DNA from: Lytechinus pictus
Lineage: Eukaryota
DNA length: 64,000 nucleotides
NCBI RefSeq assembly: GCF_037042905.1
Contig: NC_087252.1
Coordinates: 5,706,001 to 5,770,000, forward strand
Direction of reading: 5' to 3'
The translations under genes were made by a program, and so were the position numbers. Position 1 is the first letter of the stretch; each line of letters begins with the position of its first letter. The notes under the pieces were generated by a model. That model saw only the letters and a list, made by a program, of their open reading frames with translations, was not told where the DNA came from and did not search any database. Below are positions 5,342 through 39,000 of this stretch, piece by piece.

Positions 5342-7803
5342 TATATAGGGCGAGAGGGGTGGGGGCAGAGAGAATAAAAAGAGGACGGTCAAAACTTGTC
5401 AATACCAGGTCTTTGAGAACAAGGGAATTACATGTCTGTGGGATAAGGTTACAATTTCAGACGCTAGAAATCAATGACCCGGATATTGTTTCTGCGCTCA
5501 TTTGTGGTGAGTGTAATAACATGTCCGTTGGGCCTCAGTGCTGTAAAAATAATCATTGCTTTTTGTCAAAATGCAGGGCGTCTTTGGAAAGCAGTTTTGC
5601 ATAACTGAACAGGCCTACCCTGCAGTATAAACTAGATAAAACCAATGAATAAATAAATAAATTTCGATAAAAGCTCTTCTTTTTATGAAGGGATTAGCCA
5701 CAAGGAAATAGATATGGATATCATATCGTAATAACACGTTTTAAACTCTGCCTACTGATTTCTGCAGACTTCTTTAGATTAGCGCTGTCTCGTCGTAGAC
5801 GGGGTAGTTGGAGTATGGAAATCCGAGAGATAAATACTGAATACCATAGACAAAAAACCCGATTCTTTTGGACTGTCGATACCCCACCTACGGCGAACTA
5901 TAGACATTTAAGAACATCTGCACTGAGGCGGCTCCGAGGACGCCTTTACTTACAAATCTATTAAGTTCAAGTGTTTGGCTTTGATTTACTTCTTCTTTTT
6001 GTTTTGGATAAGATGAACAAAATACAGAGTAAAGAATAAATAAACTAACATATTCCTAGGGCCATGGGAACGATTTTTTGGTTGTTGTTTACTGAGTGTG
6101 CTGATGCAAATTGGAAAAAAAAAGGTTTCCACTACAAAATGAAGGTAATCATGGTAATTTGGTTACATTTTCCTATTTTTACACATCTTCCAGAATACCT
6201 GGGGGTGCTGCCTATGGAGAATAACACATGCAGCACCCCTAAGGATTTTTTTTTTTTGGGGGGGGGGTTCTTCAGCACACCCGCACCCATGAATGTGCAG
6301 TCACATTTTCCGTAGAGCCACTCAAAAACAGCTACATAGGTGGTTTGAATAAAAAGGAATAAAACGGCTGTTCCGACTTGCTGTATTGGAAATGTAACTG
6401 CAGCATAATGTTGGAATATTTGATCATCTAACAGTCTAAGAGGGTGTGGCAAGAAAATATTTGCAATCAATAGCTAATTTCAGGTGCAAGTTTTTAAGAT
6501 ATTGATCAATTGAAACTGAAACTTTTAATTACTGATGCAAGGAGTAGACTAGCAATCAATTGAAAATTTACAATTAATTGTAAGACTTATAATTAATTTT
6601 AAGAGCTAAAATTGAATGGCAATTTTTATGCAACAACCAGTAGATTCCAATATTTGGTTCATCGGACATGACTCGAGAAATTACAGTAGTTCTAAGGGTT
6701 ATTGCGTTATCTTTTTAAATAGCTAGGATAATGTAGAAAATTTGTTGTATTTTCAGCGTGCTTATTTCAAATAATTATGTCAAAGCGTTAACATAAGATG
6801 ATAACATTGGACAAACAATCTAAAGTTGAAAGCCTATATCACAAGATTTTATGTTCTGATTGAATTATGCAATTATTAATTTATTACATTTTGGATCCAA
6901 GTTTGATACAGCTGTAAAAATAACCTGAAATCTAAAGTAATGCATTTGTCCAAAAAAATATTTTGTTCTAATACTTTTGTGCTATTCATGCACGGCGAAA
7001 GCATCAGATGTTGTTCTGAAAAGTTCCGAATGAGTCTGCATTTATTTATTTATTCATTTACTTATTTATTTATTTGTTCATTTATTTATTCATTCAATGT
7101 ATTCATGCAGAATGAAAAAAATTGGAATCAGCAAGGCTGTTTTTCATCGATATCCTGTTTCACCGATGTCCTCGTTGTCATGTAAACATAATATGTTTAC
7201 ATCTACCTCTAAGCAATTGACAATTATCAAAAATGAACAGTATAATATAGCACATTATACAAAGAGTTTTATATTATTATCACCTATTATCATTAGTATT
7301 GATTGGTTAGTATTGATTACTGTCGGGTGTGGGAGTTTGGAGGCCGCCCGAATGCTTATTGGCAGAAATATAAAAGGAAGAAAAGACATTGGACGAAAGG
7401 AACTACTTTTTTCTAGATATGTAAAATCTGTTAAAAAATAGATTAAAATTATTTGGGGTTAATTACCTCGCTTCGTTCACTCTTCACTGTTTAGGAATCA
7501 TCTGTGCACGAGTGTCTTCATGTGCTCATAATTTATTTTTTGGTGAACATGAAAGCATTTTAGAACACAATCTCCTTGCTAAAAAAAGTGCCTCTTGAAT
7601 TTTACATTTCATGTCAGAAATGGATTAAAGTCAAAAGTTGTTTCAAGGAATGCCGGTATTCTATGTTGAAATAAACAGTTTTTTATATCCCTTTATGTTT
7701 TACAATGTTTTAAAATTACCGAAATCAAAAGAAATACTGCCTATATCTCGGTCAAATGATTTTAAAAGAATAACTTTTCCATATAGTGGAAAGTGATTTA
7801 CTA

Positions 7804-8187
7804 TGGTTAATTTCCAATGTGTCTAATGCCAATTCGTCCTATTGCCAACTCGTCTATTTTGGTCTACAATCAGTTCATCCACTCACCACATGGTCTACTT
7901 TCATTTAGTGTAATGCCATTCCGGCTAATAACCAGTTGGTCCAATAGCCATTTAGTCCATATACCATTTGGTCTAATTGGACTATGTGTTAAATTGTGCA
8001 AAATGAATTAAAATAAAATGGATATTGGACCAACTGGTTATGAGACGAATTGGTGATTAGGCGAAGTGATGATTGGACCAAATGGTTGTGAGACGAAATG
8101 TTGATGGACGAAATGGCATTTGACTAAATGAAAGTAGACCATGTCGTGAGTGGACGAGTTGGGAGTAGACTAATTGGCAATTTACCT
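7804..8187. mobile_element. Foldback-like MITE built from short (about 15-20 bp) internal repeats; partial second copy at 19204-19345
   Basis: Arms gccaattcgtcc...actcaccacatggtctactttcatttagt versus actaaatgaaagtagaccatg...taattggcaatttacc; the same left arm occurs at 19204. Confidence 0.7.
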
Positions 8188-9679
8188 TATATGAATTGAT
8201 TTTGAAACAATCAGAAAGTCTTTAGATTTTAACATTAAAAAAGATCTTGTTAACCAAATCATGGCTTAAACATAAGTAAACAATAAACATCCATAAACTG
8301 ATATCGGTTGAAGAATGACACTTTTTTTATTTGACATGACAACATTTACTTTTCGTCTTGATTTCAACTTCAATAAGCCATACATACTGTTCATAGACAT
8401 GCAACAAATTGCACTTCAGCACTGCACTGGTATACTATTGACATTTCAATTTAACATTCAGTAACGGTTACACATATAATGTGAGATATCAGAGGATGAA
8501 ACGATAATACAAAAGGCACTTTTATCATTAATAGCAAAAAAGAAGTATTGAAAGTTTACAAAGTATTGCACTGAAATTGAACACGATTAGACATGCATCG
8601 CGAGTGAACACCAGAAAGTTTTTTGCTTTCACCTACTTATCCAAGTCAGGAAAGCTCACAGCAAATATCCTTACCTCCGAATATTTCTTATATCATCTAT
8701 CTACGAATAAAAACTTCTGATAATTCAACCATCTTTAAGCTAATGCTTTGACACATACAACATGTACAAAGTGCATTTCAACTTGCATGGCTTCCCCATT
8801 CATTAATACTATATCAACAATTGCCATTTAGTCTATATACTTTTCGCACATAACTTGGGAGCGAAAATCCATTTTCATCGTCATTATCAACAATGAAATA
8901 CCTACTTTTGATATGAAATAAGGAAGGGTTTAAAAAAAGAACAACTTCGAAACATAAATGTTGCTTTGCGCTATACGCCCGTCTGTGTATTTTAGTAATG
9001 GAAACACTAGTGCGATGTTTATATTTTGCTTTATGTTACCGAATGCATTATTAGTTATTATTCATAGCTAGTGTTCATTTTGGTATAACGTTATTTACAT
9101 TCATAATTTTGATTTATCGTCAGAATTGATGCCACATTATATCATAAAGCACATCTCACCCTAAAGGGTCGTCAAAAAATATTCATATAACATATTGAAA
9201 AGGAGAATATTGGATAATTTGTTAATTTTTCGTCGTAGGTAAAAAATTTAATGCAAGAAAGGAAACAAAACTGTCATATAAGTCGCATAGTCAAGGTTAA
9301 TAGATGCAAAATTACATAATAATGATAATAATAATGTTAATAATAATAATGATGATAGTAATAATAATAATAACAATAAACTAGTTTGCTTCGACGTGTT
9401 TAAGCTTTAAAATATGCTGTGTACATTATGAACAGTCCAAAAGGAAAATGATATTAAAAAAGTTCCAATATACTTGGAAAAAAATTCGGAAAATGATTAG
9501 GGGCCTATATAATTATAAGTAGTTTGTATCGCACATATATAAAATAATAAAACCAATAACTATATATAACCAGTTATAAAGATACAATAGCAATGACAGC
9601 ACCAATATTAGTTTGTACATTGATGATAATAGTAATAAAACTTATGATTATCATAATTAATAACCATGCTGTTAGTTTC

Positions 9680-9800
9680 ATTGGCGTAAATCCGAGATGT
9701 CATTCTATTTAAGTGGGGGTGGGGGAACAAAACAATATATCATATCCCCAGCCCCCCCCCCCCCCCGAACTACAGGTTTGCCGCTCGGATTTACGCCAGT
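9680..9800. mobile_element. Short MITE
   Basis: TIR cattggcgtaaatccgag / ctcggatttacgccagtg with internal G/C runs. Confidence 0.7.
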
Positions 9801-10160
9801 GATTACTTTAGTTTACGATATAATTCTTTTCGCCAAAAATCACCACGCCAATAGCCAATCGAGTGTGCTTTTCGGGTGAACAATTATGGTTAAGTAAATA
9901 CCCTCATCACATTTTATCCCGCTTTTAAATAAAAACATAGTATTTACCCAGTATACGTCCATTTGTATCACCCTTAGAAAAAAAGATCTACACTAAGACT
10001 AATTTGTACTCCTACAAACTACTTTATAATTCTTTGTATATACAATGTTATAAAAAAAAATTATCATGAATAGGCAAAATGTTAATAAAATAGAATTGAA
10101 TTCCACACGCAATAGATAAAGGGGGGGGGGGTCATTTGAAATCAACTCCAAATTAAACAA

Positions 10161-10163
<3 letters not shown>

Positions 10164-10223
<60 letters not shown>
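10164..10223. repeat. (TA)n microsatellite
   Basis: Directly visible. Confidence 0.95.
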
Positions 10224-10229
<6 letters not shown>

Positions 10230-10384
10230 TATAATTATGTATAATTATATTGATATATTGATAATGGACGGTGGCGACGAAAGAAAAGATGGGGCACAAG
10301 ACGAAACAGCTAACGTCGATATTTAAAAATTGGTTAGAAGAATAGGTAATATAGAAGTATGTGGTGTCAGATCTTTATTCTTAT

Positions 10385-10740
10385 TTCATTCATGTTATTA
10401 TTTTTTTTATGACCCGATGGACTCTCCTCTCGATAAAACAGTGATGGGGGGAGGGGATGTCCAGGTGGACTACTCTACCAGGGTTTTTCCTACTCTTGTA
10501 CCAATAGTGCAGCAGGTTCTTAACGTGAAAAGGCGGTGACTCTCCTCTTCAGGCGGCCTCCAATTAAAGTCCTATCCGAGGAACATATTGTTTTCCTCTG
10601 TATCATAGCCATACATTTATGCAACAAGGGAGGGGCAGTTTTACACACAACGCAGACTTCATTCGCCGGCCCGGGGTGGATTCAAACCCACGACGTTAGG
10701 TTCGACATGCAGACGCTCTAACGACTGAACTAACTCGCTC
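10385..10740 (-). mobile_element. tRNA-derived SINE with a Nin-domain-like core
   Basis: Minus-strand head gagcgagttagttcagtcgttagagcg...gggtttgaatcc (A/B-box-like); core ttcctcggataggactttaa...cacgttaagaacc; A-rich tail. Confidence 0.7.
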
Positions 10741-10817
10741 ACTATTCCTTTCCACGTCCCTTCTATATCTTTTCTCCTCTTCTTTCCTTTTGTTTACTAT
10801 ACTAAATCATAGTGCCA

Positions 10818-11056
10818 CACTGCAAAAACTCCGGTGTTGATTTAACACCAGACCGGAATCTATATATGTCCACACCAGAGAAGTATTGAAACAACATCAG
10901 TTTGGAATCAAACCGATGCTGTTTTAATACTAATTGGTGTTGTATAAACAGCTATCTGGTGTTAGACCAAAACCAAACTGGTGTTGTTTAACACTTCTCT
11001 GGTGTGGAATATATATTCCAGGCTGGTGTTAAATCAATACCTGAGTTTTTGCAATG
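10818..11056. mobile_element. CMC/EnSpm-type MITE
   Basis: CACTGCAAAAACTC...GAGTTTTTGCAATG termini, long inverted arms, 2-bp TSD CA. Confidence 0.85.
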
Positions 11057-11366
11057 CACCTTCGTTATATTAAGTACGTAAAACGACAGTTGTATGCAAC
11101 TAAGCATCTGCCCGGCCCACACGCAGAGTAGGTGATTGGTTGAAACTTTCTATACCACACAACACGTGGAGTTTTGAAGAAATAGATACATCATAAAAAG
11201 GCAATCACCTTTAAGAAGAAGGTAAATTTTTAAGTATATTTGCAACACCCACCTAACTAAATGTACCATTCACATACTGATTGTATTTAGTGATATCATG
11301 AACCTTTTTTCTTAAGATAACATGCCCTACATGTATTAAATACATTGAAATTTCTTGCTTGTAATG

Positions 11367-11550
11367 CACTCTAAAAATGAAGTGCCAACTTACATGTAGC
11401 ACTTACTAAGAGCTTGTATAGCATGTATAGTGAGTGCACTTCGGAGTGCTCATTTTCTAGTTCAAATTTACATTACAAACTCAGCACTCCGAAGTGCAGT
11501 CACTATACAAGCTCCTTTGGTGCTGGATTAGCACTTTACTTTTTAGAGTG
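11367..11550. mobile_element. CMC/EnSpm-type MITE
   Basis: CACTCTAAAAA...TTTTTAGAGTG termini, palindromic interior, 2-bp TSD TG. Confidence 0.85.
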
Positions 11551-11995
11551 TGGTTTTGCGTTCTTGGGGAATAAGATAAGTTGGCGCGTGCGTGCGTGAG
11601 GGTGTGTGTGTGCTCGCGCGCGCGGGCACATGATTTGCACTTCACGATAGCCTAGCGTTCTCACTCACGCCACCCCATTCCCAAAGGTACATAGTGCTAT
11701 ATATTATCGGGATGAGAGGAAACGATCATTTCTATTTGATGAAATATCACCAAAACAATGTACGTTTAAGTATTAGCATAATTCTAAGCAATGCTGTTTG
11801 AACCTTCTGCCACGGAATATCTTAGTAAAAAAAACTCCCTTTATTTGTTACCCAATTTGTACATGCACAAAATTTAAAAAGTAAAGGACAAGAAGATAAT
11901 GGTCCAGGGTTGCCATCGGTATAAACCACAATGTAATATGTCTACCATGACAGTATAAGGAAGATATATTGGTGACAAGGTTGAATTAAATAATA

Positions 11996-12141
11996 TTAAG
12001 GTTTATTTTCCTCCTTCTCCTTCTTCATTTTCCGCTTATTGAGGCATAGTAAGATGATGAGCAATGCTGATGCGAATGTCTGTATGATCCCAAGGAGGAT
12101 AAAGGATTGGTCATAACTTCCAAAGTGATCAAACAGCCAAC
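11996..12141 (-). CDS. SLC16-family last coding exon (GWLFDHFGSYDQSFILLG...KEENKP*)
   Basis: Acceptor ctgcag|GT TGG (AG at 12143-12142); last TM helix, charged tail, TAA at 11998-11996. Confidence 0.93.
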
Positions 12142-15100
12142 CTGCAGTTAGAAAACAAGTTTGGATATCAAAAGTCATCAAAATTCATTTTCGTGGAGGA
12201 AAAAATAAATATATTTTTCAAATAGGAAATAATTAATTCATGAATTCCTAACAAGTACAAATGAAGAACAAAAAAACAAATCCGCTACAAAAATCTATTG
12301 TGTACGTAATTTTTTATTGTTTTTTATTTTTCTTTATGTATTTCTTTATTTCATTTTTTTTCATTGTTTTTTCAACATAATTTATCGGGGACATTATTTC
12401 AGTCTTAAATTTCATCAAAAGAAATGACTGTTGTCGCTAAAAGTGATAATGATTATTCATTGATGAATTTTGTACTTTCTTCGTACATATACGTTTTTCG
12501 GTCTGACATGCACTTACATAATGTTGCATAATTTCGTAGCCGCATCACAAATCTGGTCTCAAAGTTACGCGAGACTCTAAAGTAAAAAGTCAGCGAGCGG
12601 CGCAGTAAAAACATTTCGCGAATCGGATATATCGCAAAACATGTCGAGAGGGAGCAAGGGAGGGAGGGGGGGGGGTGAAAAGACCACCGGTCTAAGTTTA
12701 TGCAGTAGTTTGGATGCGTATATCCATTTCATATAGTTGTGACGATCCCTACTTTAAGTTAATATGCAAGGCCCTTAAAGGCAAAGTTACAATTATGTTC
12801 TCGTAACCAAGATGATTTAAGAAGAATGGTTGCGTACACATTTCATACACCTGTGAGGAGTATATGATTTAGCATTCGGATGACAGCAGTTATGTGGGTG
12901 CGTATACCAATTTTGATTTACCTGTTAAGATCTCTAAAGTATTTTTGTAGTATTTCAGGGCCCCATAACACAAAGAATAGCGATTAAAAGCTATTTTGAA
13001 AGTAGATTTCTGATTGGTTCCTAGTCAGTGTTTTGAGCAAAATGCGAGTGCAACGATGGTCTTGATAGGTCATTTCATTTAGAGATTAATCGAAAACCCT
13101 AGTGTTACGAGGCCCTGATGATTGGAGAAGTATGTATATACATATTTATATACCTGTGAGGAAGCCAGCCGACATCCGTCCGATCCCAGCGAATCCGTAC
13201 GACCAGCCAAGAGCATTAGGAAACCTTTCCATACCTATCGACTGTTTGATAACAACTACGGCAATAGGGAAGAACACACCACTAGCAGCTCCATAGGTTA
13301 GAGAGGCTGCGATGAGGACACCATATGTATTCAACGCAGGGTCAAGCAACATAGGCAAAGCTGACATGAAGGAAGCTATAGTAAGAAGTTGAGCAGCAGT
13401 AAGTAGTTTATAGTCAACTATCAAACCGTGACCGGCCCGAGCGACAATGTTTGAGACACCGGCGACAGATGCTATAAAGGTGGCTTGGAGAGGAGCAATC
13501 CCCTTTTCCTGGGCATGTGGAACGAGGTATATAAGCCAACCCATATAGACAAATCGCCCACAGAATTGCACTATCATTAGTATGATAAAGTATACGTCCT
13601 TGAATAGAGATAGGCCAAGAAGTGAGTGGCAACGTTCGGCCCTTGTCTCCGAAGGCTCGTTGTCGTCGTCATCGTTACTTTCTATATTTGCACATTTTTC
13701 GACATCAGTTACTGATCGTTCTTCACCATTGCCTAAACACCCCTCGCTTTCCTCGTATGTGTTTCCTGTTTCGCTTTGCTTTATATGTTTTAGCTCAAAA
13801 GATTCGTTAGATTGATACTGGCTCTCTTTAAAACCATTGTTCATCGGAATAGGTCTATCATCATCTTCGTCTTCATCATTATCCTCTGGGCCGAGATCAC
13901 ACATTATTCCTTTCGAAACATATTCTTTTTCGTCAACACAGTCGTCGGATTCAACCTCAACCGATTTATACTCCATCTTGTCTTTTCGCCGTCTATCGGA
14001 ACGTCTGACTTTGATTGGACGCAAGAGGGCGCCACACACACTGACATGGAAGCACAACGCCCCCATAATGAAGAGACCTCCTCGCCAGCCATATGTGTCT
14101 ATAAGGATCTGTGCTAATGGCGCTAGTACCAGGATTCCAACTCCAGATCCTGCGTACGATAGACCGTTGGCGAGACTGTATCTTTTTTCAAAGTAGTGTC
14201 CGACCATAGTTAGACTTGGTGTTAAAGCAAGGCCAAGCCCGATACCTGTGATCAAAACAAAAGTGTGGTATAATTTCAAGAAAATCGTATAACAGCATCG
14301 ATGATATATTTTGTATTGCTTTTCATAAGATCGAGTAATATTAATCTAAGTCTTATTTGCTGTAATATGACATTCTATGCAATTGTGTTACTATCTTAAC
14401 TATTGCACCCGCTTTATATCCCACAGTTGAGGTCAGTAATTAAAGAAATGACAATTCGTGCCTGATGAAATAGCGATTGGTATGAAGAAAAAAAAAACAC
14501 TCAACATTTCTTAAGCAACTCACAAACAGCAAATGGCACATCTTTTTTTTTCAAACATAAGTTATGCTTGTTCTTTGTCATGTAGGGAATTGACAACATA
14601 TTTTCATTGCTTTCGGACCCTCCGTGCATGTTCATCGAGGAGCGCAAACTCCCTAACGCCATTACGCGGAGGACGCGACTCAGACTTTTGCCGTGGTGCT
14701 ATGGTTTTTTGGTGAGAGATACGACCTTGATAGCTGTAACTACAACGCTGATAAAATAAAGCACCGCTTACAAAGAAGAGGCACGTATGCAACATCAGTA
14801 TGCCCCTCTCCTTACAAACAGGTATTGCAATTTCCAGTTACGAAATGTGATGCCATCAAAACTTGCATTTCAACATTTTTCATGTCTCCATTTAGGTAGA
14901 ACACGATAAATACATCCATCTATCAAATGTGACATGAATTGGGGCGCATGGTGGCTGTTTGGTGGATGTTTTTCATCATAAACTTTATAAACAAGTTTAG
15001 CAATTTCTAATTACAAAGTGTAATGCCATTAAAAGTGCATTTCAACATTTTTCATGACTATATTTTGGTAGAACACGATAGAAACACCCATCTAACAAAT

Positions 15101-17979
15101 ATGACATGAATTGGGGCATAGCGACTGTAAGGTGGATGTTTTTCATCATACTCCGCCGACATATGGTTACAAAATGCTGAAATACCCTTATAGGGCATTT
15201 TTTGTGACGTAATCGCTTCCGATCTCTATGTCTGTGTGGATAGATTTATTTGCACATTTTAGCATCCACTTCGCAGACGCTTTCTGAAACGTTAAGAATT
15301 ATATTGAAAAGGCCCGTCAAAACACAATGGACGGATAAGAGGTCATTGCCAAAAGTTGTGGACCCGAACAGCACATCGTCTTAAGATTCAGAACAGACGA
15401 AAAATTGCAAATATGTCAATTTTTAGAGTCCATGACTACAATGACTACTATTTTGATTCATCGATTTTCAACAAAGGCTGCTTTGTTAAAAGGGCTTTTT
15501 TTACAAAATATAATCGGCGTTATAGAAAGCGCAGACGAAGTGATTGCTAAAATCCCCTATTACCTGACAGTGATAGACATAATGATAGCTGACTGACTTC
15601 AGTGGTACCAGCTGCCAGTATGAGGCCAGTGCCACCAAAGAATCCTCCAGCCATGGCGATGGGACGACAACCAAACCGTCTGCATAACGGACCACTAATC
15701 AAACCTGTACGAAATATGACACCATTAAGATAAAAAGAACCAATGAGTTAACGGTCCCCAAACTGCGTGAGTAAAACAATTTAACGGATTTTTTCGAGGA
15801 AAGCAAAATTGAAGGAATTTCACGGAAAATTCAATTTTTAACCAAGAAATATTAAATTACGGGAAAAATTTATGGAGTGAAAATCATGAAAATCAAAGCA
15901 GTTATAATTGAACGAATTTGCGTTTTTTTCAGTAAAAAAGCTGCCAATCAAAGACATTTCCATCTACTTTTATTTTATTTCTACTTTGGCATATATTTGC
16001 CACACTTTATCTGCCTGTAATTTACGCTTTCCTGAGCTTATCCCTATATACAATTGTTTTATCACTTGTCACTGGTCAAGAACACAGAAGAACATGGATT
16101 AAGCCTTTCAGAAAACAGAAAACTAGGGTGCCTAGAACAAGTAGAAATTACCAAATGATACCGAAAAATGTACCTTGACCATTCTTAGCAATAAAAAGAG
16201 AAAATGCATGCGTTATCCTTTTCCTACATATTTTACACCGCTTATCCACGTTGTCTGTGTGTGATTTTTAGAGTAAAGGCTAACATGTGCCAGAATCCAC
16301 CGAGTTTAGTTAGGTTTATGGCAAGAACAGTGTTGACTTTAGCGAATAAAGCTGAGAATACAAGGAGAAAAAGGGAAATATTTTTTATTTACACCCCGCT
16401 TACCCTCGTGGTCTGTGTGTGCTTTTTAGAGCAAAGGCTAGCATGTTCAAGTGGGGTAAGAGGAAATCTAATGCTGAATTATAATTCACTGAGTTTACTT
16501 AAGTTTATGACAAGAACAATTGACTCTAGCAAAAATAGCTGAGAACAAAAGGAGAAAAAGAAGATATGTGATAGGGATATATTCAAACGTTATTAGAAAC
16601 GACTTTCTGACGATTTATTTGAGCAAGGTCGTTTCTGAATTGATGACCAAGAAGCAGAAGAGGAATCTGAGTTTTTTTATGGGTAGCCAATGGAGGGATT
16701 AATCCCGGGGGTTGCAATGATTTTGATAGGAGGGGGGGGGGCGACCTAAAATTGGCTTTATTTTTTTCAATTGCATAATATGGGTTTTGAAAAGTTAAAC
16801 CACACAAAAACTCCCTCTTTTAATTATCTTATTTTGTTCTTTTGTTTTCTTTCCCCGTTTCATCCCCTATCTTGCCTGTATGATTATGATGGCTGCCTTC
16901 GACACTTTACATTATTTTGACAGGACACCTTTCTTTTGTACCTGTAAAATCAGCAAACGTGACGCAGAGAGAACTAATCCAACCAATCAGAGACGTCGAC
17001 ACATCGAAATATGTTCGGAAAGTTGGCAGGAAAACACCAAGGCACTTAGCAATACCTTCTCTGAAGATGAGCGTGCAGTGAGCTGCCAACAAGATGAACC
17101 ATCCATAACCTAACCAACGAAGGATGAAATAGAAAATAAATCTTTAGATAACGTTCACAGGCCACATCTGAACACAATTTGTTACATTAACATTTAAAAT
17201 TTAAGAGCAATCTTACAAATTTTACAACCAATTCTATTGAAATCCATTAATGCATTATGAATCATTTTACAATTATGTTGGCGTGTATCCTAACTGCTAT
17301 TCAAAAGTTCGACTAGACTAGATCTGGACGTCCTGCTAGTAGGACGAGGTGAACAGAGAGAGGAAGATAAAGAGGACTGATGAGTTGGTGCATGAGTGTT
17401 GGGCTTTCAAGCAAATAACTACTAACGTATAGATCTAAACTAAAGTTTGAAATCCTTTAAAGACCAGAAATGTAATTTTAGCCTTTGTTCAATTTTAACC
17501 CCTTTTGCCAAAATGTAGCCACTAATAGCCTATGTGGCGATAAATGTCCTCATAAAATAGTTTGAAAAATAAAAAAAGTACAAAATGTTGTCAAAATCAT
17601 GTTGAAACTTTCCAAAAATTAAAATCTTCCACTCATTATTTGTATAATATAATTTAAAGAATGTATGGATTATTAAAAACTATATTCGTTCCCTATAAAG
17701 TTACCATATTTCATTTTAAATTCCTACCTCCATCAGTAGCCGGAGGTTTATTTGCGGATGACCTCGGATCCTTCCCTGACGGCCTTTGAACTCTGCTCCC
17801 GTTCTGCGCGTGCTGACTGACTTCCTGTGTTTTGGAATGACCGTTTGTGATTGGTTCAGGCTCCTCTTCATGGTAGGGGACAATATCTTGCGAGGAATCG
17901 GAAGGCGGGAGTTTGGAGTATTTGGTGAATCCTCTGAGAAGAAAAAAGGAAAGATAAGTAAAAAAAAACATATATATAG

Positions 17980-18017
<38 letters not shown>

Positions 18018-21000: not shown

Positions 21001-24000
21001 CTTGATTATTCTTCTTTACAATGATGTGCCATCTGCTGTGATTAAGAAATCATGGAATGTGCTGTTACCCTGAATATAGGGAAAAATAAGAAGTTGAATA
21101 TTTATAGTCAAGCAAAACCAAATTCTGTCAAAATTATATGTCCCCAGTTACAATGTACATAATACTTTTAGGGCATATGGCAGCCATTCTGAATTACAAA
21201 AGACAGCATTCATTACACCCATGACCAATATATGATTTATTTAGTTAGAAATCATGTTAAAAACAATATTTTTACTCATACATATCAGTTACATGCATTT
21301 TATTATTCTCACTCTTGTGAAAAAGTGTCCCTATACGCGTGTTACGTATTGTAGTTAGGAATTGTAACGGCTATTCTGAATATCAAAATACAGTTTGTAT
21401 TACCTCCATGGCAGAATAAATGCTATATCTCACAAAAAGTCATGTTTCTAACTAGCCAATTGTCGTGCAAAAACGTCAAGATATTTTGGAAAATAGTTTC
21501 GTGTCTTATAACCCGATTATCATAGGATATGACATACTGTAGGGTACCAAAAAACAAAACTTGTTTATGCCCAATTTACTCTATATAAGAATTCTGTCAA
21601 AGAATGCAATGATAAAAAGAAACATGTGTTACTTGGATACTACCTATTGAAACATTTGGAAGTTTACTAAGTTTGAAGTATAATCAGAAAAGATTAAAGG
21701 GCCCAGCCACTGACAAATCATGGGGATATTGATTCAGTACGAAATTTGCAAAAGGCCAATTGACTTGCTTAATATAATCTGTCCGTCATGAGCGCCAGTC
21801 GGACTAATGCGATAAAAGTTCGTACAGCACGAATTTGACCGAACTCTTGATGGTTATTTACTTCGGATCATCGCAGTTCCAGTTTCCAACAATCCCAATT
21901 CCTAGACTCATAGCGTGTCTCTTGATTGCAAAACCAAACTAAATAACCTCTGTGATGTTACATGTTTCAAAAGTGAAAACAAGCAATTTACTTCTGGTTG
22001 GTTAGTCTACTAACTAATTGCCCTCCTCTCCTCGCCACAACTCGCCCAGTTGCTCGCCACAACTGGGCGTTGTGGCGAGCGCCTGTAATCCAAGCTATGT
22101 GGGGAAGTTACAAATTGATGCAGAGGTTCGGGGTTCGAGCCCTGGTCACGTCTCTCGGATGGTGACGTTAAAGGTCGGTCCCAGACGTAAATAATCATAT
22201 CTGATTGATACACGTCTGACAAAACTCAAATACACACACACACACTCCTATAGACCTCGCAGACATGCCGGCGTCTATTACATAACACCCCAGCCATGCA
22301 GCCAAGTGAAAGACTTTAATCCCTTCTCTGTTCCGAGATTAGCTTTGATTTCCCCATGATTTGCCAATTAAAGGTCGCTTTAAATGAAACTGAATTGCAG
22401 AAGATGCGCTATTACTTCGAGTGTAAACTCTACCGGTCACGGTTCTTTGGTTCGTTGTTGGCTGGCCTGTTGGAGCCGGATAGCAATGGATTCAGTCCAC
22501 TGAATCTATGGTTCTCTGGTTTTCGACGGGTGATAGCGGGCCGAGGAATTGTGACTGGTAGTGTAAGAAGCATTTTTTATTGGATTTTGTTTTGTAAAAA
22601 ATTGTTGAGCGATATGATATGAATTTTGTTCATGTAAAAACTTGTATATTTTGATTTTTTTGTGGACAACAAAGTACCTCAATTGAGGATAAATAGAGAA
22701 AAAAAAAACATTTTTTACAAATATACTTTACCCATACAACATGATTATTTTGATTTCATAGTTAATCAAAATCCAAATTCTCACAAAATTCCCCATTTAC
22801 ATTGTAGATAGTACTGTAGGGGCCTATAGGGGCCATTTTATATTTCACAACCCTTACAAAAAATTCCTGTAGTACTCTGTGATATGTACTGCAGGAAGTA
22901 TCGCAGGAAAGTACTGCAGGAATTACGTGCACGTAATTTGGGACGGTACTACAGAAATGTACAACAGGAGTACAACAGGTCCGTGTCCTGTGATACTTCC
23001 TGTGGTAATAACCGCATAAGTATGGCAGGAAGTATGACAGGACACGATCACCACAACCGCTACAACCGCTACAACCACTACCACACTACTATTAGTACTA
23101 CAGGACAGTATCACAGGATAGTATCACAGGATAGTATCACATGATAGTATGACAGGACAGTATGACAGGATAGTATGACAGGACAGTATGACAGGACAGT
23201 ACTACAGGAATACCGCAGACCAGTATCACAGGGAAGTACTACAGAACAGTATCGCAGGACAGTACTACAGGAGTACCGCAGGCTTCTGGTACTGTGTCCT
23301 GTAGTACTGTCCTGTGATACTGGACTGGTATTCCTGTAGTACTGTCCTGTGATACTGGTCTGGTATTCCTGTAGTACTGTCCTGTGATACTGGTCTGGTA
23401 TTCCTGTAGTACTGTCCTGTGATACTGGTCTGGTATTCCTGTAGTACTGTCCTGTGATACTGGTCTGGTATTCCTGTAGTACTGTCCTGTGATACTATCC
23501 TGTGGTGATAAATAGTATCACAGGACAGTATGACAGGACAGTACTTTAGGAATTCCGCAGACCAGTATCACAGGAAAGTACTACAGAACAGTACTACAGG
23601 ACAGTACTGCAGGAATACCAAGAGACCTTACCGCAGGACAATTCCTGCAGTACTGTCCTGTGGTATTCCTGTGATACTGATCTTTGATATCTTCTGTGGC
23701 ATTATTGGTCTCATCCTGCAGCCTTCTTGTGATACTTTACTGTGGTAATCCTGCAGGGGTATTCTTGTTGATTTCCTGTGACAATCCTATGGTATTGTCC
23801 TGTAGTAGTCTGTGCGATTTTCTCACGACACCGTCCTGCACTGGTTTGTTAGGCGTAGTAGTTTGTAAGAATTTCCTGTGATCCAGCACAACAACTTTGA
23901 CATCTTGACTAATGAAAAGAGGCGTGAAAAAACCCACAAATTTGCAAAGACGTTAAAAGCATATTCACATACCTTTATTATGTATGAGCTGTATTATGCA

Positions 24001-27000: not shown

Positions 27001-30000
27001 CAATTTGACCCCCCCCCCTTCCAAAAATTTTGCGACCATGCTGTCGCACAATTTTTTTAAAACATGCCTCTTTCTAGTCTTGTGCATCTTTTGAGACCAA
27101 TCTTGTGTCACCCGGTACGTGGTTCTGTAATAACGTGACATTATGTAAGTACATGTCATACCAAAAATTGCTCAAAAACGTGATTTTGTGTACAAAGTCA
27201 ATGCAATAGAGGAAAAAGTATGATATTGTATTCTAATTACGCATAAATTAGTATTATCACTTACTAACAATTTGCGTGAAATAATTTACAATTTAATTTT
27301 GTAAATTATGCCCTAGACAACCCATGTGCCAATGTTAGACGCGATTGTGCGGTCAAGATCTCAAGGAAGGGGGGGGGCCCTGGAAACCCCCCCTCCCCCC
27401 TTCCCCGGCCATATCAACTCCCAAAATACCCTGGCTTTAGTTGACTTTCTGGCTCCTCTTGAGTAGTCACCATTCATTGGACAGCTTGTTTTTATCCAAG
27501 TCTGTATAGCACGAGGCAGCTTAATCTGTAGAAAAAAAAACACATACCATTACGATAACATGAACAACATAAAAATACAAGAAATAAAGTGTTTTGCCCC
27601 CATCTAGATCTCTTTTCACAAGTACACATCTATCGGATAATGAGGTCCTTGCGGCTATCTCTCTTAGCATATTCTTGCTTATAAAAGCAAACTAAGCCGA
27701 AGAGTGACAAACAATTTATAATGCAAACAAATTGTCATAAGCACATATTGAAACTCTTTAATAAAACAATGAAGAATAAATCTACATCTTCTAACAAGGA
27801 TTACACTGTATGCCACTGCATGAATACAATCTGCTTAATTTTGTAATTATAATATCTACTGAAGTGAATGCCTATATAATCACCTTTTATGAACTCCAAC
27901 CGTGTCTTGTACAAGAACATGGCCTTTTCTGTGTACACCTGTAGTATCTTTCCCACATAATGCTGGACTTGCTGCTCGATCATCCAGAGATCCCTCTTTG
28001 AATCTTTAATGAAATGAAATGAATTTGAGTGACATAGTAAAATTTTATTTGCAGGTTAATACAAATACATGATGTAATAAAAATACATGATAAAACTTCT
28101 TCATTTCCATATTTCAGTGTTACAATTCAGGTGCAAAGAGTCATATTCTTTAATAATATTCAACATAAAATCAATGAAAACTAGTGCTGTTGTCGATAGG
28201 CCTCATATCGACATTGATGTCGACATACGAAGGATTTTCAAAATTCCGACATGTCGACATGCACGCACCCACATCGACATGTAAACATAAAATAAAAAGG
28301 GGTCTAGCCTACAATCACGAGTGTAAAGATTAGCTGAAAAGTTAGAAGCATTTATCCACAGTAATTGGCGCGATTAAAAGGTTTATTCAGCTTAAAGAAT
28401 ATCTGCGAGCTGTGCGGCAGTAGAAATACGTCAGTGCAGGGCCGGCCTGCCCGATCGAGCCGCCCTCGATATCCCGTTATAGCGAGAGTAGCATTCACCG
28501 TACCCATCCACGGAAATATGTACCCATCGCGCGCTATTCACCGTGCTTGATAATACGTTGCTCCTCAATGCATTACTTTTCACATAAACGTGAGCAGCAG
28601 CGAACACGTGTTTTTGTCAAAGTTGTGACTGCCGCAATTGAGCGCTTACTTCATATCACGAAGTCACAGAAAACTTCCCTTCATTCGTTTGGAGATCGTT
28701 GCACGGATCGCCGCGGAAGTGATACTGAAATTATCGGTCGATTTTCATTACTTTTCATTGTCAAATTGAGGAGCTTGCGTTTGCAGCAATGATCACTGTT
28801 GTAATTGGTGATTCTCAAATTGGCTACGAGTGTTATTGAGCAATGCTTTCGAAACCGGATCCTGGTACAAAAACTTGATTCTCCAGAAAAAAAATGTGGA
28901 TTAAATCGGTGATTTTGGAAGCTCAATTCTTGAACTGAGCCTGTATTATATAGATCTAGTGTGGGGATATCACTCGTGTCAAGGTGAATATATTTGATTG
29001 AGAGTGTTGTTCCACGATCGAATGCTTTTTTTTTATGTTAGGGAGCCCAGGCTAAATTACGGTCCCTTTTTCATGTCGACATTGTCGATGTCGGGATTAA
29101 TTTTTAAGCGACATGTCGACATGGATTTTTGTTCCCGACAACAGCGCTAATGAAAACATTAAAAGTAGAGGAGCAACCTTACTCACAGTCTGTTATTGTC
29201 GCTAAAGTCTTTACAATAAGAAGATTGGGCACTTTGCCGACATCGCGTAATGCTTTGCATCGATTTACATGTATAATAGTCTTTGTGCCTAGTCTTTTCT
29301 ATGTAGTGTCTTTAATATGTAGATAAAACATGCGTCCTTTAGCTAGTTAGACGAACAATTTTGGAAATTAAAGACGGATCCATATTTTATCAACCGGAAG
29401 AGAAATTAGTGCTTAAATGAAGCTATTTGAGGGATATTGATGATATTTAGGGTGAATTGACTTCACATCTTTTCGTAAGTTTGTCATGTTCATAGAAGGC
29501 CGGACTTGATTTTATAGAAACCTCTTTTAAATTTGTGGGATTGCCTACCTCGAGTGAAGTTTGTGCAGGCTCTACTCCACTTCACTATTGCTACACTACG
29601 CTCCACCTACCCAAACTTTGAGACCGTGAACTGGATCTGTCTTATTCCGAGTGACAAAAAGTGGGATCTTATGGGGGGGGGGGATATCAAATTCATGCAA
29701 CATCACGCTCTTTAAAAAAATTAAAACTAATATTCTTCCTGCACACAAAGTTTCAGTTCTTCTCCATGCCTCTATCCGTCTCAAAATTGATGATTTAGAG
29801 CCAACATGAAGTTTCTCACACGTATCAATATTCAATACATCGCATGCGTGTGAGGTCGGTCGGGTCAGACCAGGCCCGGTATCTCGCGAATATTGCATCC
29901 GCATGCAATGTTTTGAAATCGGCAGCGAATTATAAATATGTGTGAGGAACTTCATGTTGGCTCTAAATCACCAATTTTGAGACTGATAAAAGCATGGAAC

Positions 30001-33000
30001 TAAATGAAACTTTGTGTAAAGTAAGAATATTAGTTTTAATTCTTTTTAAAAATCAAGATGTTGCATGAATTTTATATTCCCCACCCCCATAAAATCCCAC
30101 CTCTGTCACTCAGAATATCAGATCGAGTTCATGGTCTCGAAGTTCGCGTCTGTAACGTTGGCGAAGAACAATAGAAAACAAGATGGCGGCGTAAACATCG
30201 GGCAAGTCTCTTCCGTCTAATCATGATATTTTTCGCATTTTTTGGAATGAATTTCTTCTTCAAAAATAACGACGAGAGCGTAGAAATGTTGGAAATTAAG
30301 TTTTATCCCATGTACATGATTTAGGTCTAACGTTAGGCTAGATCTTTTAGAACTATAAATAGAAGGAAAGTAGAAATCTCGGGGCCGGGGGTGAAAGTTT
30401 CAAGTTTTGGCTTCCTCTGTGTGGGTATATGAGAAAGGATCCCTGGCTTCATATGAGAGTGACCTTACGAAGTTACGTTAGTAAATGATTTTCACTCTCT
30501 AGAAGCCGCCTGGCTAGGCCTACAGCCATTCCCGATCACGATATTTTGAAAAGTGGTGGATATATTGACTTCAAATGTGACTGAGTCTGAGAGACTTGTC
30601 ATGACATTTGGGAACAAATATTGGTGATGAGGTATGCTGGTATTAATCGGCCGGTGCGAAACTGCATTAGCGCCCACCCCTGACCTGGCTACAATCATGA
30701 CAATACAAACATCCTCACCGCCGCCATCAATATACTACTAACTTAGCCAGCCGTTGGCCGTCCCCGGCCGCGCACACCGCAGATCAGCCCCCACCCGATA
30801 AGCGATCGGGAACAACGGCAGTGCAGTGGCCGTACGGTAATGATTAAAAAGTCGAAGAAATTTAAGTGCATGCCGCGCCAAACTACGAAAAATGGATCTA
30901 ACTTACTGTTTAGCCTGTTGTGTGAATGTCTTAAGAAGTCGTTGTCCGAATCTGATCCATATTCTGTTAGTTTTTGTTGAAATATTGACGGCCTTCTTCA
31001 TCAAGCTTCGGGTTCAGCTGAGCAGTTACGAACGTTTTTTTTCAAATGGCGGAACCGGAAACACGTATACGGTACAGTCCGTGCGTTTGTACGGGGAGCT
31101 CGGAGGGGGGGGGGGTCTTACTTTTTACTTGGCAACCAGACAATTTGACTATTTTCGCCATCATTTATATATCATATTATTAACGTAAAGGAATTGAATA
31201 AAGTAAAATTCAAATATTTATTTCTTCTTCCTTTCTTTTTCTTTTCTATGTCTTTTAATTTTTTTCTTTCTCTTTATTCTTTTTTTTAATATAAGGATAG
31301 GATTTAAAAACATGTCTCACAATTTTACTGAAAATATGTTATATAGGCCTACTAGTATGCAAGTAGGATGACAAAGAAAGCAATGAGGAAAATCACAGCT
31401 CCAATCCTATGTATTTTTAATTTTATTTCTTTTCAAAAACACACATTTTATCCTTTCTTGCGATCGAAGGAAAGATCCCTTTATAAGGTTCAAGTAGTAA
31501 AAGAAAATAATCTTAGATCAAGTGCCGGCAGGGTATTTTGATAAGGGGTGGAGGAGCAAGACAAGCAAATATAAAGATACCATTTTGAAGCGAAACATAA
31601 GAAAAGATAATAACTTTGCCAACGAGGTAAAAAATAATATGATATCGGTTGTGACACTTTAAGGATGGAAAATAGTTTGAAAATATATAGATACAAACTT
31701 CATACAAATTAGAAAAAAAGAAGCAAAATAAACTGCCATCAGATGTGAACAGAGATACAAGATTGTTCTTGCAATTAAAAAACATATTTACAAACTATAT
31801 ATAGCTTCGCATCATAAAAATAGATTGAAAATATCCAATTTTATTTGATTTAAAAAGAAATAGATATAAACCAGCCTGGCTAACATATTGCAAGGTGGCA
31901 AAGATATAAACCGGGGATATAAAGCAAAAAATAGGCCTTAAAATGGAAATTAAATATCCTATTTTTAGTTTATCCTATTCCACCTGTAAAAAATATTGTG
32001 AATAGGAGAACAAATATTGAAGTAATTTTATTTATAATAATATATTTGTAAGAAAATAGGTCCTTTTTACTAAAAAAAAATAAATAAAAAAATAGATGGG
32101 AAACTTGGAAAAATGTATTTTCTCGCAATAAAAACTTTAAGGGGCCAGAATCGCATTAAAACTTGGTTATGAAACGTGTAAAACAAAATCTTAGATAGCA
32201 TTTTAACTGAGATTTATTTTTTAATCAACATTCAACGCTGAACTTTCTTATGTTAATTGTTTATCAATATTTTGTGAAAACAGATAGTGTGCACATCGTC
32301 ATGAATATTCATTTGGTGGGCTGATGATGTGACATTCCCATTTTTCTTTTTTAATGTTAGATATGAAATTATGATTATCTATTTTTTCAATACATGTGTA
32401 AATAATGTGTCCCCATTGTAAAGTTGCTGCATTAAATAACTAATGCGGTTAATTAGTCGTCATTCCAATTGTTTAAGTTCTTGGTAGAAATATGTTGAAT
32501 AAATCTAATTTCATATATTGTACAAAAGAACATGGGATATGACATCATCAGCCCACCTAATGAATATTCATGAGACATGCCTAAATAAAACTGTTTCATG
32601 GGAATATTGCAAATCCTTAAAATTCAACTTAACTTCGTTATTTGTCATCCGATTTTGAATAAATTTTAAGCATTTTGTTTTGTGAATTTTACTCTATTTA
32701 TTGATTATCTCTAGCGTTGACCTCCCCTTCAATTATTTTCTTGTATTGTTAGAAAGAGATGGATGAAGTAGAATAATACGTTCATGCTTATATTTTTATT
32801 CATTACAATATCTCTTTGAAATTCAACCCGGCTTCCTCACAACCATTAAGCTCTAAGAGTGTTAGGTGTGTCCTGTATATTTCAACACGTACCCTTTTAA
32901 ATATAGTCATTTTTTTATTATTCATCCTGTTTTTTATGAAAAATAAGTGGCGAACAAACAAAACAAAAATGATAATTGAAATTTAAAAGAGCGCATGAAA

Positions 33001-36000: not shown

Positions 36001-39000
36001 GCCCAATCCTCACCAAGCCATAATCGGCTCCAAAATGGGGGGGGGGGGGGGTAAATGCAAGGGGTAACAATTTATAAATATATACACAAAAATAAATAAG
36101 ACGAATACAACAATATACAGGGTTATGACCTTTCCTCCCCCCCCCGAAAAAAAATAAAAAATAAAATAAATCTATTAATCAAGGGTTTCAGCAAAGTTGT
36201 TAAACAATAGGGACCGGGCCAAAAATGAATACAGCTGTTGGTAGGAATGGGAAAGCTGAGTGACAGAAATGCGGACATTGGCTCTTGTACACGGACAGCT
36301 GAACTACCTATAGGGACGATTGGTTCCAATCTGTGGACATTAAGCCTGGAAAAGCTGTATATTTGTATATTTGCGGTGTGTGCCGTACTACCCCATGCAG
36401 CCTGGATGGTTTCAGTAACTAAATGGATAGCATATCACAACTATGCATCAAAAAGAAGAAAAAGGGGGTTAGTGAAAAGTATGTGTAGTCTGGTCACATG
36501 GCTGATACAATCATGAGAAATAGGTACGTAAAAGAAAAAGAAAGACATTTGATGCTATTACTTTGAAATAAATAATGCGGAATATCAACTTCTTCTGTGT
36601 ATCATCACTCTTCATGTCACGAAACTGACGTGACTGATTTGTCCCCGTCTGTTCTAATTGCGTTTTAATGAAGAAGGGAAATAAAGGAGAAGGGGAGATG
36701 TCAGGAAAAAATCTAATAATAGTAATAATAAGGTCAAGAAAATTATGAAAATAATGATCATTATACACAATTTCATAAAACGAAACGGTGAGAGAATATG
36801 AATAAAATTAAACAAAAACGCAGTGAAAAAATAAGATTAATTATATAACCTACTCACCTACGCTTATTCCGCATTTTAAGGTAGAAAAATAATTACGTCC
36901 GTCTTATTTTGTACAGGAGGTGCGGATTGTGCTTTGACATAAGAATGCTTGATACCTACACTCAGCGAAGATATCATCAGTGTGGTATAAAATTCATGCT
37001 CAAGAATAATATTCAAATTCGTGGCATTATTTCAGATAGAATACTAACTGCTTGTGCGCCTGCGCGTTCATCACACAATGTGCAGGTAGTCCATTTGCAT
37101 GATATCATTCGTTATCAGAATATTTTCCAAATAATACTTAGATTTGGAAACCAATTGCCTCTTCAAGGCACATAGGAAATATTAACGTTCGATAGCCATT
37201 GGCGGCGGAGCAGAGGATTATCTTCTTTTTTTTTTTTTTTTTTTTGGGGGGGGGATCGACGTACGCAACACCCCCCAAACACAAAAGATAATCCTCTGCT
37301 CCGCCGCCAATGTCGATAGCACACTTAAAGGAGAATCCAGCCTTGGCCATTAAATGTTATGTTGGGAAGGAGAAAAATAAATTAAACAGAATAGTGAAAG
37401 TTTGAAAGAAATCGGACAAGCAATAAGAAAGTTATAGCTGCTTTAAAATTGAGATCACTAATGGTATGTAGATTTCAAATTGGCAACTGGGTAAGTAAAT
37501 TATGACAAGGGGCAAGGACAACTTTCCCATATAGGCCATGTACTTTATTATCAGGGATTTGTGGTTTTCTCCTAAGTACCCATTCCCCTGGGGCAGTAAT
37601 CTAAATATAACCCAGGTAGTATATTGTTTTATGTCCTCATGAAAGAAAAATATAATTTGAAATAAAACTTTTGGGGAAAATGACATTTTAGCCATAATAT
37701 GTATTGGAGTACATGGAAGAGTAGTCCTTGCCTTACATCACTATGACATCCCATGTGCGGCCAAATTGAAGTCTCCATGGGTATAGTGATTACCTATATT
37801 TACAACTTTTAAAAATTCATAACTTTCTTGTTGTTTGTCCAATATTGTTCAAACTTTCACCTATCAACTTGTCTGATTTTTCTTTTCCTTATAAAATTAA
37901 GTTTTTATTTGGGTTGGATTCCCCTTTAACTCTTTATATGAATACGATGAAGCCTGCAATGTGTAGGCGTAGAATGTGGTCTGAGATAGTGAGAAATGGA
38001 TGCAATATAACAAAGGATATACTATCAGGTCATTGATGAAAAACACATTTCTGCTGACATTTTGAACCTGACTAGATATATTCTGGTAAATAAAAATAAA
38101 TAAATAAACAAATTTGTGGTACACGAGCTTTGGCAACTCTTTTTTTTTGTTTAGATATGTCATGAAAGAAATGAACCCGGGGGGGGGGGGCAGTCAATAT
38201 ATTGCTGAACACACGCGTGACCAAAAAAAAACGTATAAAGGGGTGTTTTTTTTTTCAGGTTTGGACGCAGTCCGCGCGTGGACTCGTTAAGGGTATCAAA
38301 AACACCGATTTTCAAGAAAAAGGTTGGTTTTGATAGACTGGTCAACGGTCAGTCGGTGGGTCAGATGTATTCAGGGTATGTTTTTTCCCCAAAGCTTTTT
38401 TTGGTAAGAAACGCCAAAACGTGTTTAGGGTATGTTTATTTTCCCAAGCTTTTTCCCCGAGGTAATATTTTGGCGATAACTTGTTTAGGGGCCAAAATGT
38501 CTAAATAAAGCCCGCGAAAAACTTGTTTAGGGGGTTATTTTGCACACAGAGAAAAACTCGTTTAGGGGGTGTTTGGAAATTACTCGGTCACGCAAGTGTA
38601 CAGCAATATATTTGACTGCCCCTCCCCCCCCCCCCCCGGGAAATGAATATAGAGTACAATGGTACGCGTAGCTTGTATAAAATTTCCCAAGAGCTATCCT
38701 CCATTTTGGTGAGGCCTTAAAGGTGAATGAAACCTTTGGAGCAAGTAGGCTTGTGTCGAAACAGAAAAATCAAAGAATAAGAACAAAGAAAGTTTGAGAA
38801 AAATCTGACAAATAATGAAAAAATTATGAGCATTTGAATATTGCAATCACTAATGCTATGGAGATCCTCCAATTGGCAATGCTACAAGAATGTGTGATGG
38901 CACATGTGAACAACTTTCCCTTTGATGGACTATAAAATACCCCCAAAATGTCTCTTTTTGCATTTTCTTATTGTGATACAAACTCTTTATCCATGATGTA

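Follow-up and report, generated by a model that had tools for sequence, protein, structure and literature searches.

A candidate 7SL-headed SINE family in the sea urchin Lytechinus that joins a minimal Alu 5′ domain to the body and hairpin tail of tRNA-type SINEs

A short stretch of the Lytechinus pictus genome raises the question of whether SINEs with a head derived from 7SL RNA also exist in an invertebrate. In the parts of the literature available to us, a hagfish element is presented as the first clear SINE1 outside Euarchontoglires (PMC7245038), 7SL SINEs are listed from primates, rodents and hagfish (PMC10886601, 2024), and three origins of such elements are recognized, all of which keep both 5′ and 3′ parts of 7SL (10.1101/2024.08.25.609555). 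The first-pass annotation of the 64-kb stretch of DNA analysed here (the window) proposed an independently evolved, chimeric 7SL-headed SINE at positions 22062–22245. Our reading, to which we assign a probability of roughly 75%, is that this locus represents a full-length copy of a Lytechinus SINE, one that is young and present in many copies and in which a 47-nt 7SL-type Alu 5′ domain precedes the B box, body and hairpin tail of tRNA-type SINEs. The RNA is likely transcribed by Pol III, carried to ribosomes by SRP9/14 and copied by a LINE that recognizes the hairpin. The features on which the argument turns are as follows.

22031–22061, no strand assigned: the element's first ~18 nt in inverted orientation, present twice and abutting the head on its 5′ side
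22062–22108, plus strand: 7SL-derived head, a 5′ Alu domain by Rfam Metazoa_SRP alignment and pair check, forming a three-way junction (pairs 1–3/45–47, 4–11/16–23 and 28–30/42–44)
22066–22075, plus strand: A-box position within the head
22109–22131, plus strand: linker of unsettled origin, with low alignment confidence to 7SL
22132–22144, plus strand: Pol III B box (22132–22142) in a tRNA T-arm-like setting
22145–22186, plus strand: conserved body, the 5′ block of a Deu/Nin-type domain only
22182–22218, plus strand: 3′ hairpin (7-bp stem, internal loop, 6-bp stem, 4-nt loop)
22219–22245, plus strand: A-rich spacer and (AC)7 tail (22232–22245)
11999–60644, minus strand: monocarboxylate transporter gene (MFS_1), whose first intron fills most of the window
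17932–17726, 17110–16940, 15708–15562, 14252–13152 and 12154–11999, minus strand: transporter exons
60644–60531, minus strand: transporter first exon (weak E-value, 74% identity, clear N-terminal match)

The genomic setting is that of a sea-urchin gene. An exon at 13149–14246 (minus strand) carries the MFS_1 domain and is 97% identical to a monocarboxylate transporter of Lytechinus variegatus, as against 42–66% for other echinoderms. From the exon map, the element lies antisense in the first intron of the transporter gene, which spans ~42.6 kb. The window is rich in other repeats. Long palindromic, MITE-like or fold-back repeats occur at 10818–11056, 23087–23640, 29614–30144, 38717–39313 and 41823–42034. 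A tandem duplication of ~2.7 kb (48492–51214 and 51212–53914, 98% identity) is either young or an assembly artefact, and each of its units holds an inverted-repeat element of ~620 nt (49508–50123 and 52206–52824). When the whole window was searched against Rfam with E-values up to 1 accepted, 22 matches resulted. One of these is Metazoa_SRP and the other 21 are to microRNA models, all below their cut-offs; we attribute the latter to the hairpin repeats and rejected those elsewhere in the window as microRNA candidates.

Evidence for the origin of the head comes from covariance models and from pairing. Metazoa_SRP matched 22062–22209 with 32.4 bits (E 1.2e-4 for the 64-kb window); when only 601 nt were searched, the head's E-value was 1.1e-6, and this stretch gave four model matches in total. 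The score lies below the model's gathering score of 70, since the match is limited to the start of the model. By contrast, no tRNA model matched the element in either Rfam search, whole window or 601 nt, and ARAGORN called no tRNA anywhere in the 64 kb. A pattern for tRNA-type A boxes likewise found no match at the element's A box, which by eye agrees at 8 of 10 positions with the box that PMC7245038 prints for human 7SL. A better fit to tRNA than to SRP models had been named in advance as a possible refutation, and the outcome was the reverse. The likeness begins at 22062, exactly where the 7SL 5′ end had been placed, and extends to 34 of the first 44 model positions (hand count from the alignment).

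The substitutions within the head were said to keep the Alu-domain fold, and by alignment and pair check all seven changes in stems do preserve pairing. Pairs 1–47, 3–45 and 10–17 are changed on both sides and pair 9–18 on one side; the sole non-pair in the stems, 11–16, is a non-pair in the Rfam consensus too. The two loops of the Alu domain pair with each other, and in both loops of the element the four bases involved are those of the Rfam consensus. The folding energy of the head alone is unremarkable (z −0.61; 44 of 200 shuffles equally good), and helix 4–11/16–23 has a pairing probability of only ~0.44 in the full-length fold of this copy. The compensatory changes may have come by descent from a host 7SL gene, with no part played by selection on the SINE.

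A chance resemblance to 7SL in the head of an ordinary tRNA-derived SINE would explain the tRNA-like B box and the SRP score under the gathering cut-off. It would also explain an overlap of 47 nt, when SINEBase, in the portion of its description available to us, asks for at least 60% identity over at least 60 nt to tRNA, 5S or 7SL RNA (PMC3531059). We nevertheless regard such a coincidence as very improbable, given an SRP-model E-value of 1e-6, the lack of a tRNA match and three double-sided stem changes. Even less credible is a vertebrate source, be it primate Alu DNA as a contaminant or a 7SL SINE acquired by horizontal transfer. The likeness of the head to Alu suffices for a weak match to the mir-1268 model (E 0.03), an Alu-derived family, but the body is not derived from 7SL, poly(A) is absent, this copy sits in a sea-urchin intron and the family is abundant in sequencing runs of three coded organisms.

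As judged from the alignment, the 7SL-derived part is only about 47 nt long (22062–22108). Alignment confidence to 7SL is high until ~22110 and then falls to 3–5, so that the likeness originally seen around the B box is unsupported and this part of the proposal was given up. A substitute helix 5 between the linker and the tail was rejected, as alignment confidence there is 3–5 and the helix is absent from the predicted fold.

Beyond the linker, the element has the organization of a tRNA-type SINE. Together with the A box of the head, the predicted B box completes an internal Pol III promoter; it shows no substitutions against the B-box consensus, in agreement with its initial identification. 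The body can be aligned with the start of the Deu domain of AmnSINE1, where 30 of 42 columns are identical by eye (PMC7245038, from the supplement). Matches are confined to these first 42 columns of a central domain of ~130–140 nt. What the first-pass annotation called a Nin-type body is thus a Deu-like domain of which the first ~42 nt are present and the remainder is absent. The 3′ hairpin has a folding energy of −12.6 kcal/mol that none of 1000 shuffles reached, and is the predicted recognition signal for a partner LINE. A search for the tail pattern of such a partner gave no loci in viral and prokaryote contig collections, which are not where a host LINE would be expected. The (CA)n tail noted at the outset is an (AC)7 run at 22232–22245. 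No run of more than two T residues occurs inside the element, and the first T4 lies at 22520.

If the head was exchanged, relatives with the same body and another head might be found. The core pattern of the body occurs at four loci in metagenome contigs (L001–L004), all with body and tail, and at none in prokaryote genome contigs. Three further loci in viral contigs (L005–L007) were dismissed as chance matches, with identities of 3/25 and 14/45 outside the pattern, and the four supplementary files of PMC4758252 that were searched contained none of the body motifs. Over 22156–22198, identity is 43/43 in L002 (body and tail at 601–690), 43/43 in L003 (275–370) and 41/43 in L001 (601–682), a decayed locus that ends at a contig edge. 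L004, which has no head-like part at all, was excluded from this comparison and from the register counts. The hairpin has the same fold in L002 and the same stems in L003, and is weakened in L001; L002 ends in the same kind of tail, and L003 in (AACC)n.

The heads of these sister elements are unrelated to that of the urchin element. Gap-free identity of their upstream parts to the 7SL head is 9–10/47 for L002 and L003 and 19/47 for L001, and their local scores were reached by 258 (L002), 323 (L003) and 945 (L001) of 1000 shuffles. L002 carries a perfect B box and L003 an A box. As neither Rfam nor ARAGORN called a tRNA at any of the four loci, the label 'tRNA-type' is based on these boxes and their spacing. 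The B box of the urchin element stands in the same register as those of L002 (9/13) and L003 (6/13), and likely derives from a tRNA-type parent. The linker has 6–9/23 gap-free identity to the sisters. A sequencing run labelled as a sea urchin metagenome (X15) covers the element only from 22131 onward, with other letters before, and its contigs join the window at 22131–22132. Unrelated sister heads and this onset of coverage place the join within 22109–22131. The occurrence of one body and tail behind tRNA-type heads supports a head swap, and with it the chimeric, multi-copy SINE that the first-pass annotation had envisaged.

A particular relative had also been suggested, a tRNA-type SINE at 10385–10740, on the strength of a shared motif. 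In this SINE (10385–10745 in our delimitation, minus strand), A and B boxes occur together with a Deu-like motif at 10564–10580; neither Rfam nor ARAGORN calls a tRNA in it. The common motif exists, at 15 of 18 columns, but 115 of 2000 shuffles score as well, and self-BLAST of the window shows no match between the two elements. Since the motif is not significant, this SINE was rejected as the donor, and it is at most a distant relative.

As a separate observation, marine metagenome contigs that are unrelated and differ in their heads share 95–100% identity in the body and tail over 43 nt. Such conservation points to either a strongly conserved short SINE domain or horizontal spread of the putative tRNA-headed parent.

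Whether this locus represents a family was assessed from 24 sequencing runs, 14 of which, from three coded organisms, hold at least half of 20 sampled words. Contigs of X2 (2858), X14 (3494), X7 (93) and X15 (128) were mapped to 22099–22500; X16–X24 were not used. In X2, summed depth is 8.2e5 in the body and 2.8e5–4.9e5 at 22099–22126, a stretch with the linker and the strands that close the head, compared with 27, 27, 5.9 and 44 in four bins of unique flank (22393–22448). Summed contig depth is no copy number, since short overlapping contigs lead to overcounting. If every base is assumed to be overcounted 31-fold (31-letter words were used), the head-side bins give a floor of 204–578 copies, an estimate and not a count, from a raw ratio of 6,000–18,000. 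SINEBase asks for at least 100 copies (PMC3531059, in the portion available), and this floor exceeds that number. Among the X2 contigs, 614 are at least 99% and another 892 are 95–99% alike (together, 1506 of 2858 at 95% or more). The family is thus young, many-copy and abundant in the runs of three coded organisms. The prospect that the sequence might be single-copy, which was raised as a second possible refutation, is contradicted by thousands of contigs and by the copy floor.

Variation within the family was also evident. At 22131 and 22154, this copy departs from the majority letters. With the majority letter at 22131, positions 22123–22136 become a perfect 7-nt tandem pair (22123–22129 and 22130–22136), of which the linker holds the first unit. 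A variant with one unit, that is, with a 7-nt deletion, makes up 14% of depth in X2, 0.7% in X14 and 28% in X7. At 22154, X14 has another majority letter (71%), which is a sign of lineage-specific subfamilies.

These data also bear on whether the element is a one-off chimera, or a truncated 7SL retrocopy that came to lie in front of a tRNA-SINE fragment by chance. Self-BLAST revealed no second copy in the 64-kb window and there is no clear target duplication, as that explanation would have it. However, depth across the junction region 22099–22126 is 53–59% of body depth in both X2 and X14, and 85 X14 contigs have head-like loose ends (58 before 22100 and 27 before 22101, with agreement of 0.47 and 0.54). 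The mapped region starts at 22099, so this link between head and body in other copies is a loose-end consensus from one run; none was seen among the X2 matches listed, and 250 and 233 contigs extend past the two ends of the mapped stretch. The accidental origin is already largely refuted, and we give it hardly any credence.

Two further repeat signals lie near the element. A second, lower-copy repeat lies directly behind the (AC)n tail at 22255–22384, with a summed depth of 2e3–7e3 in X2; it is present in X7 too and nearly absent from X14. Within it, 19 nt (22348–22366) have an inverted partner at 21711–21729, so the SINE may sit within an older inverted-repeat element. A low-level signal at 22462–22500 (X2 summed depth 350–820) overlies a hairpin with 21-bp arms at 22476–22519.

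The 5′ boundary of this copy is unusual. None of the 1519 other 42-nt tiles of the window scores as high as the inverted head copies at 22031–22061, and the longer of the two ends at the complement of base 1. They look like a snap-back 5′ junction of this insertion. For R2 insertions, the available text of PMC11204384 describes snap-back junctions that are mostly templated by the cDNA itself. The junction supports both a reverse-transcription route of insertion and a transcript that begins with base 1 of 7SL. Only 5-bp candidates for a target-site duplication were found, and the 5′ junction is rearranged.

Comparison with known SINEs, drawn here from the available portions of the sources cited, sets the design of the element apart. 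Its closest counterpart is SINE1-1_EBu of the hagfish Eptatretus burgeri, in which a 7SL head was likewise placed on an older tRNA-SINE body by chimera formation. That family, too, is young and has a simple-repeat tail (PMC7245038), and 27 of its first 30 bases are by eye the same (PMC7245038 supplement). The hagfish element, however, keeps 96 nt of the 7SL 5′ part together with the 7SL 3′ end, and so the whole Alu domain with its own B box, and its tail is RTE-derived and bipartite. The urchin element has 47 nt of 7SL, a B box of tRNA type, a Deu-like block and a hairpin tail. Alu, FLAM and B1 of Euarchontoglires and the shrew-mole element Urop share with it a 5′ Alu domain that starts at base 1 (10.1101/2024.08.25.609555; PMC7245038) and an internal Pol III promoter with similar A–B spacing. 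Whereas these elements are wholly 7SL (5′ and 3′ parts with a central deletion), end in poly(A) and are mobilized by L1, the urchin element is a chimera that lacks the 7SL 3′ part and poly(A) and ends in (AC)7.

Deu-SINEs such as AmnSINE1 and EbuSINE1/2 have in common with it the first ~42 nt of the Deu domain, and a subgroup of them provides a precedent for the fusion of a new small-RNA head onto a tRNA head, in that case with a piece of 5S rRNA in front (PMC4758252). In the urchin element the remaining ~90–100 nt of the Deu domain are absent and the new head is 7SL, not 5S. The same extent of 7SL is present in a laboratory construct, the engineered minimal Alu domain SA46/AY46, which binds SRP9/14 and supports retrotransposition (PMC11760393). 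That construct depends on a CMV promoter and human L1 ORF2p, while the urchin element is natural, predicted to be driven by Pol III and served by another LINE. SINE1 elements are characterized by both 5′ and 3′ 7SL parts with a central deletion; here, the 3′ half is instead the body shared with tRNA-type SINEs. The element works like a SINE1, but it lacks the 7SL 3′ part and falls short of the 60-nt overlap of SINEBase.

On these grounds we propose the following mechanism. Template switching or recombination would have replaced the 5′ half of a tRNA-type head and retained its B box, so that the A box would now come from 7SL and the B box lie 56 nt downstream. Pol III would read the element from the 7SL-type A box (22066–22075) and the tRNA-type B box, without meeting an internal T-run stop. 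The 47-nt head would then fold and bind SRP9/14, and the RNA would be placed at ribosomes, by analogy with the 46-nt minimal Alu domain. A hairpin-recognizing LINE protein would bind the 3′ hairpin, and target-primed reverse transcription would proceed from the (AC)n tail. For this copy, the cDNA would have reached base 1 and folded back on itself twice before being joined to the target.

Ribosome targeting guided by SRP9/14 is the likely use of the head by this analogy. In the available text of PMC11760393, a 46-nt 5′ domain equals the 86-nt one in SRP9/14 binding and, in HeLa cells, yields ~86% of Alu activity, a result obtained with human L1 and a poly(A) tail and not with a hairpin-recognizing LINE. 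The main rival accepts the 7SL head and the family, and holds that the head does no more than provide a promoter part at the 5′ end, with its A box and start site, and has no SRP9/14 role, the LINE finding its RNA by the 3′ hairpin alone. Consistent with this, sisters with tRNA heads and the same body and tail have spread without a 7SL head, a young family would retain the pairing of its donor without selection, and the Alu domain here is missing its 3′ strand, which every 7SL SINE described in the available sources retains. A promoter, on the other hand, needs only the first ~15 bases for its A box, whereas the likeness to 7SL extends through the closing helix and ends immediately behind it, at base 47, the boundary of the minimal active domain in the available account of it. 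We consider a purely passive head unlikely, and prefer the reading in which the head acts as an SRP9/14-binding domain.

No invertebrate 7SL SINE was found in the accessible parts of the literature searched, which included PMC4758252, PMC5786205, PMC11481361 and PMC3531059; the sequences of the repeat libraries Repbase, Dfam and SINEBase and subscription journals lay outside this search. A stronger claim would be that this is the first invertebrate 7SL-derived SINE, of a fourth independent origin and uncatalogued, and that its reliance on the bare 46–47-nt SRP9/14-binding domain is natural proof of a portable ribosome-targeting module, one that gave an advantage to a tRNA-type SINE working with a hairpin-recognizing, non-L1 LINE. 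We see about equal weight for and against this claim as a whole.

Given that reports of 7SL-derived SINEs come, in the sources available, from three vertebrate lineages only, the sea-urchin case extends the class to invertebrates. Its design differs from theirs, in that the urchin element retains only the minimal domain that assays in human cells had delimited. This copy adds the snap-back junction, the spread of its family across three coded organisms and the 7-nt variants. The finding serves an open question, namely whether the Alu domain aids SINE spread via ribosomes, apart from its promoter role and from L1. Sister elements in which tRNA-type heads precede this same body and tail offer a ready-made controlled comparison and, as Lytechinus is an experimental model, the question can be tested there.
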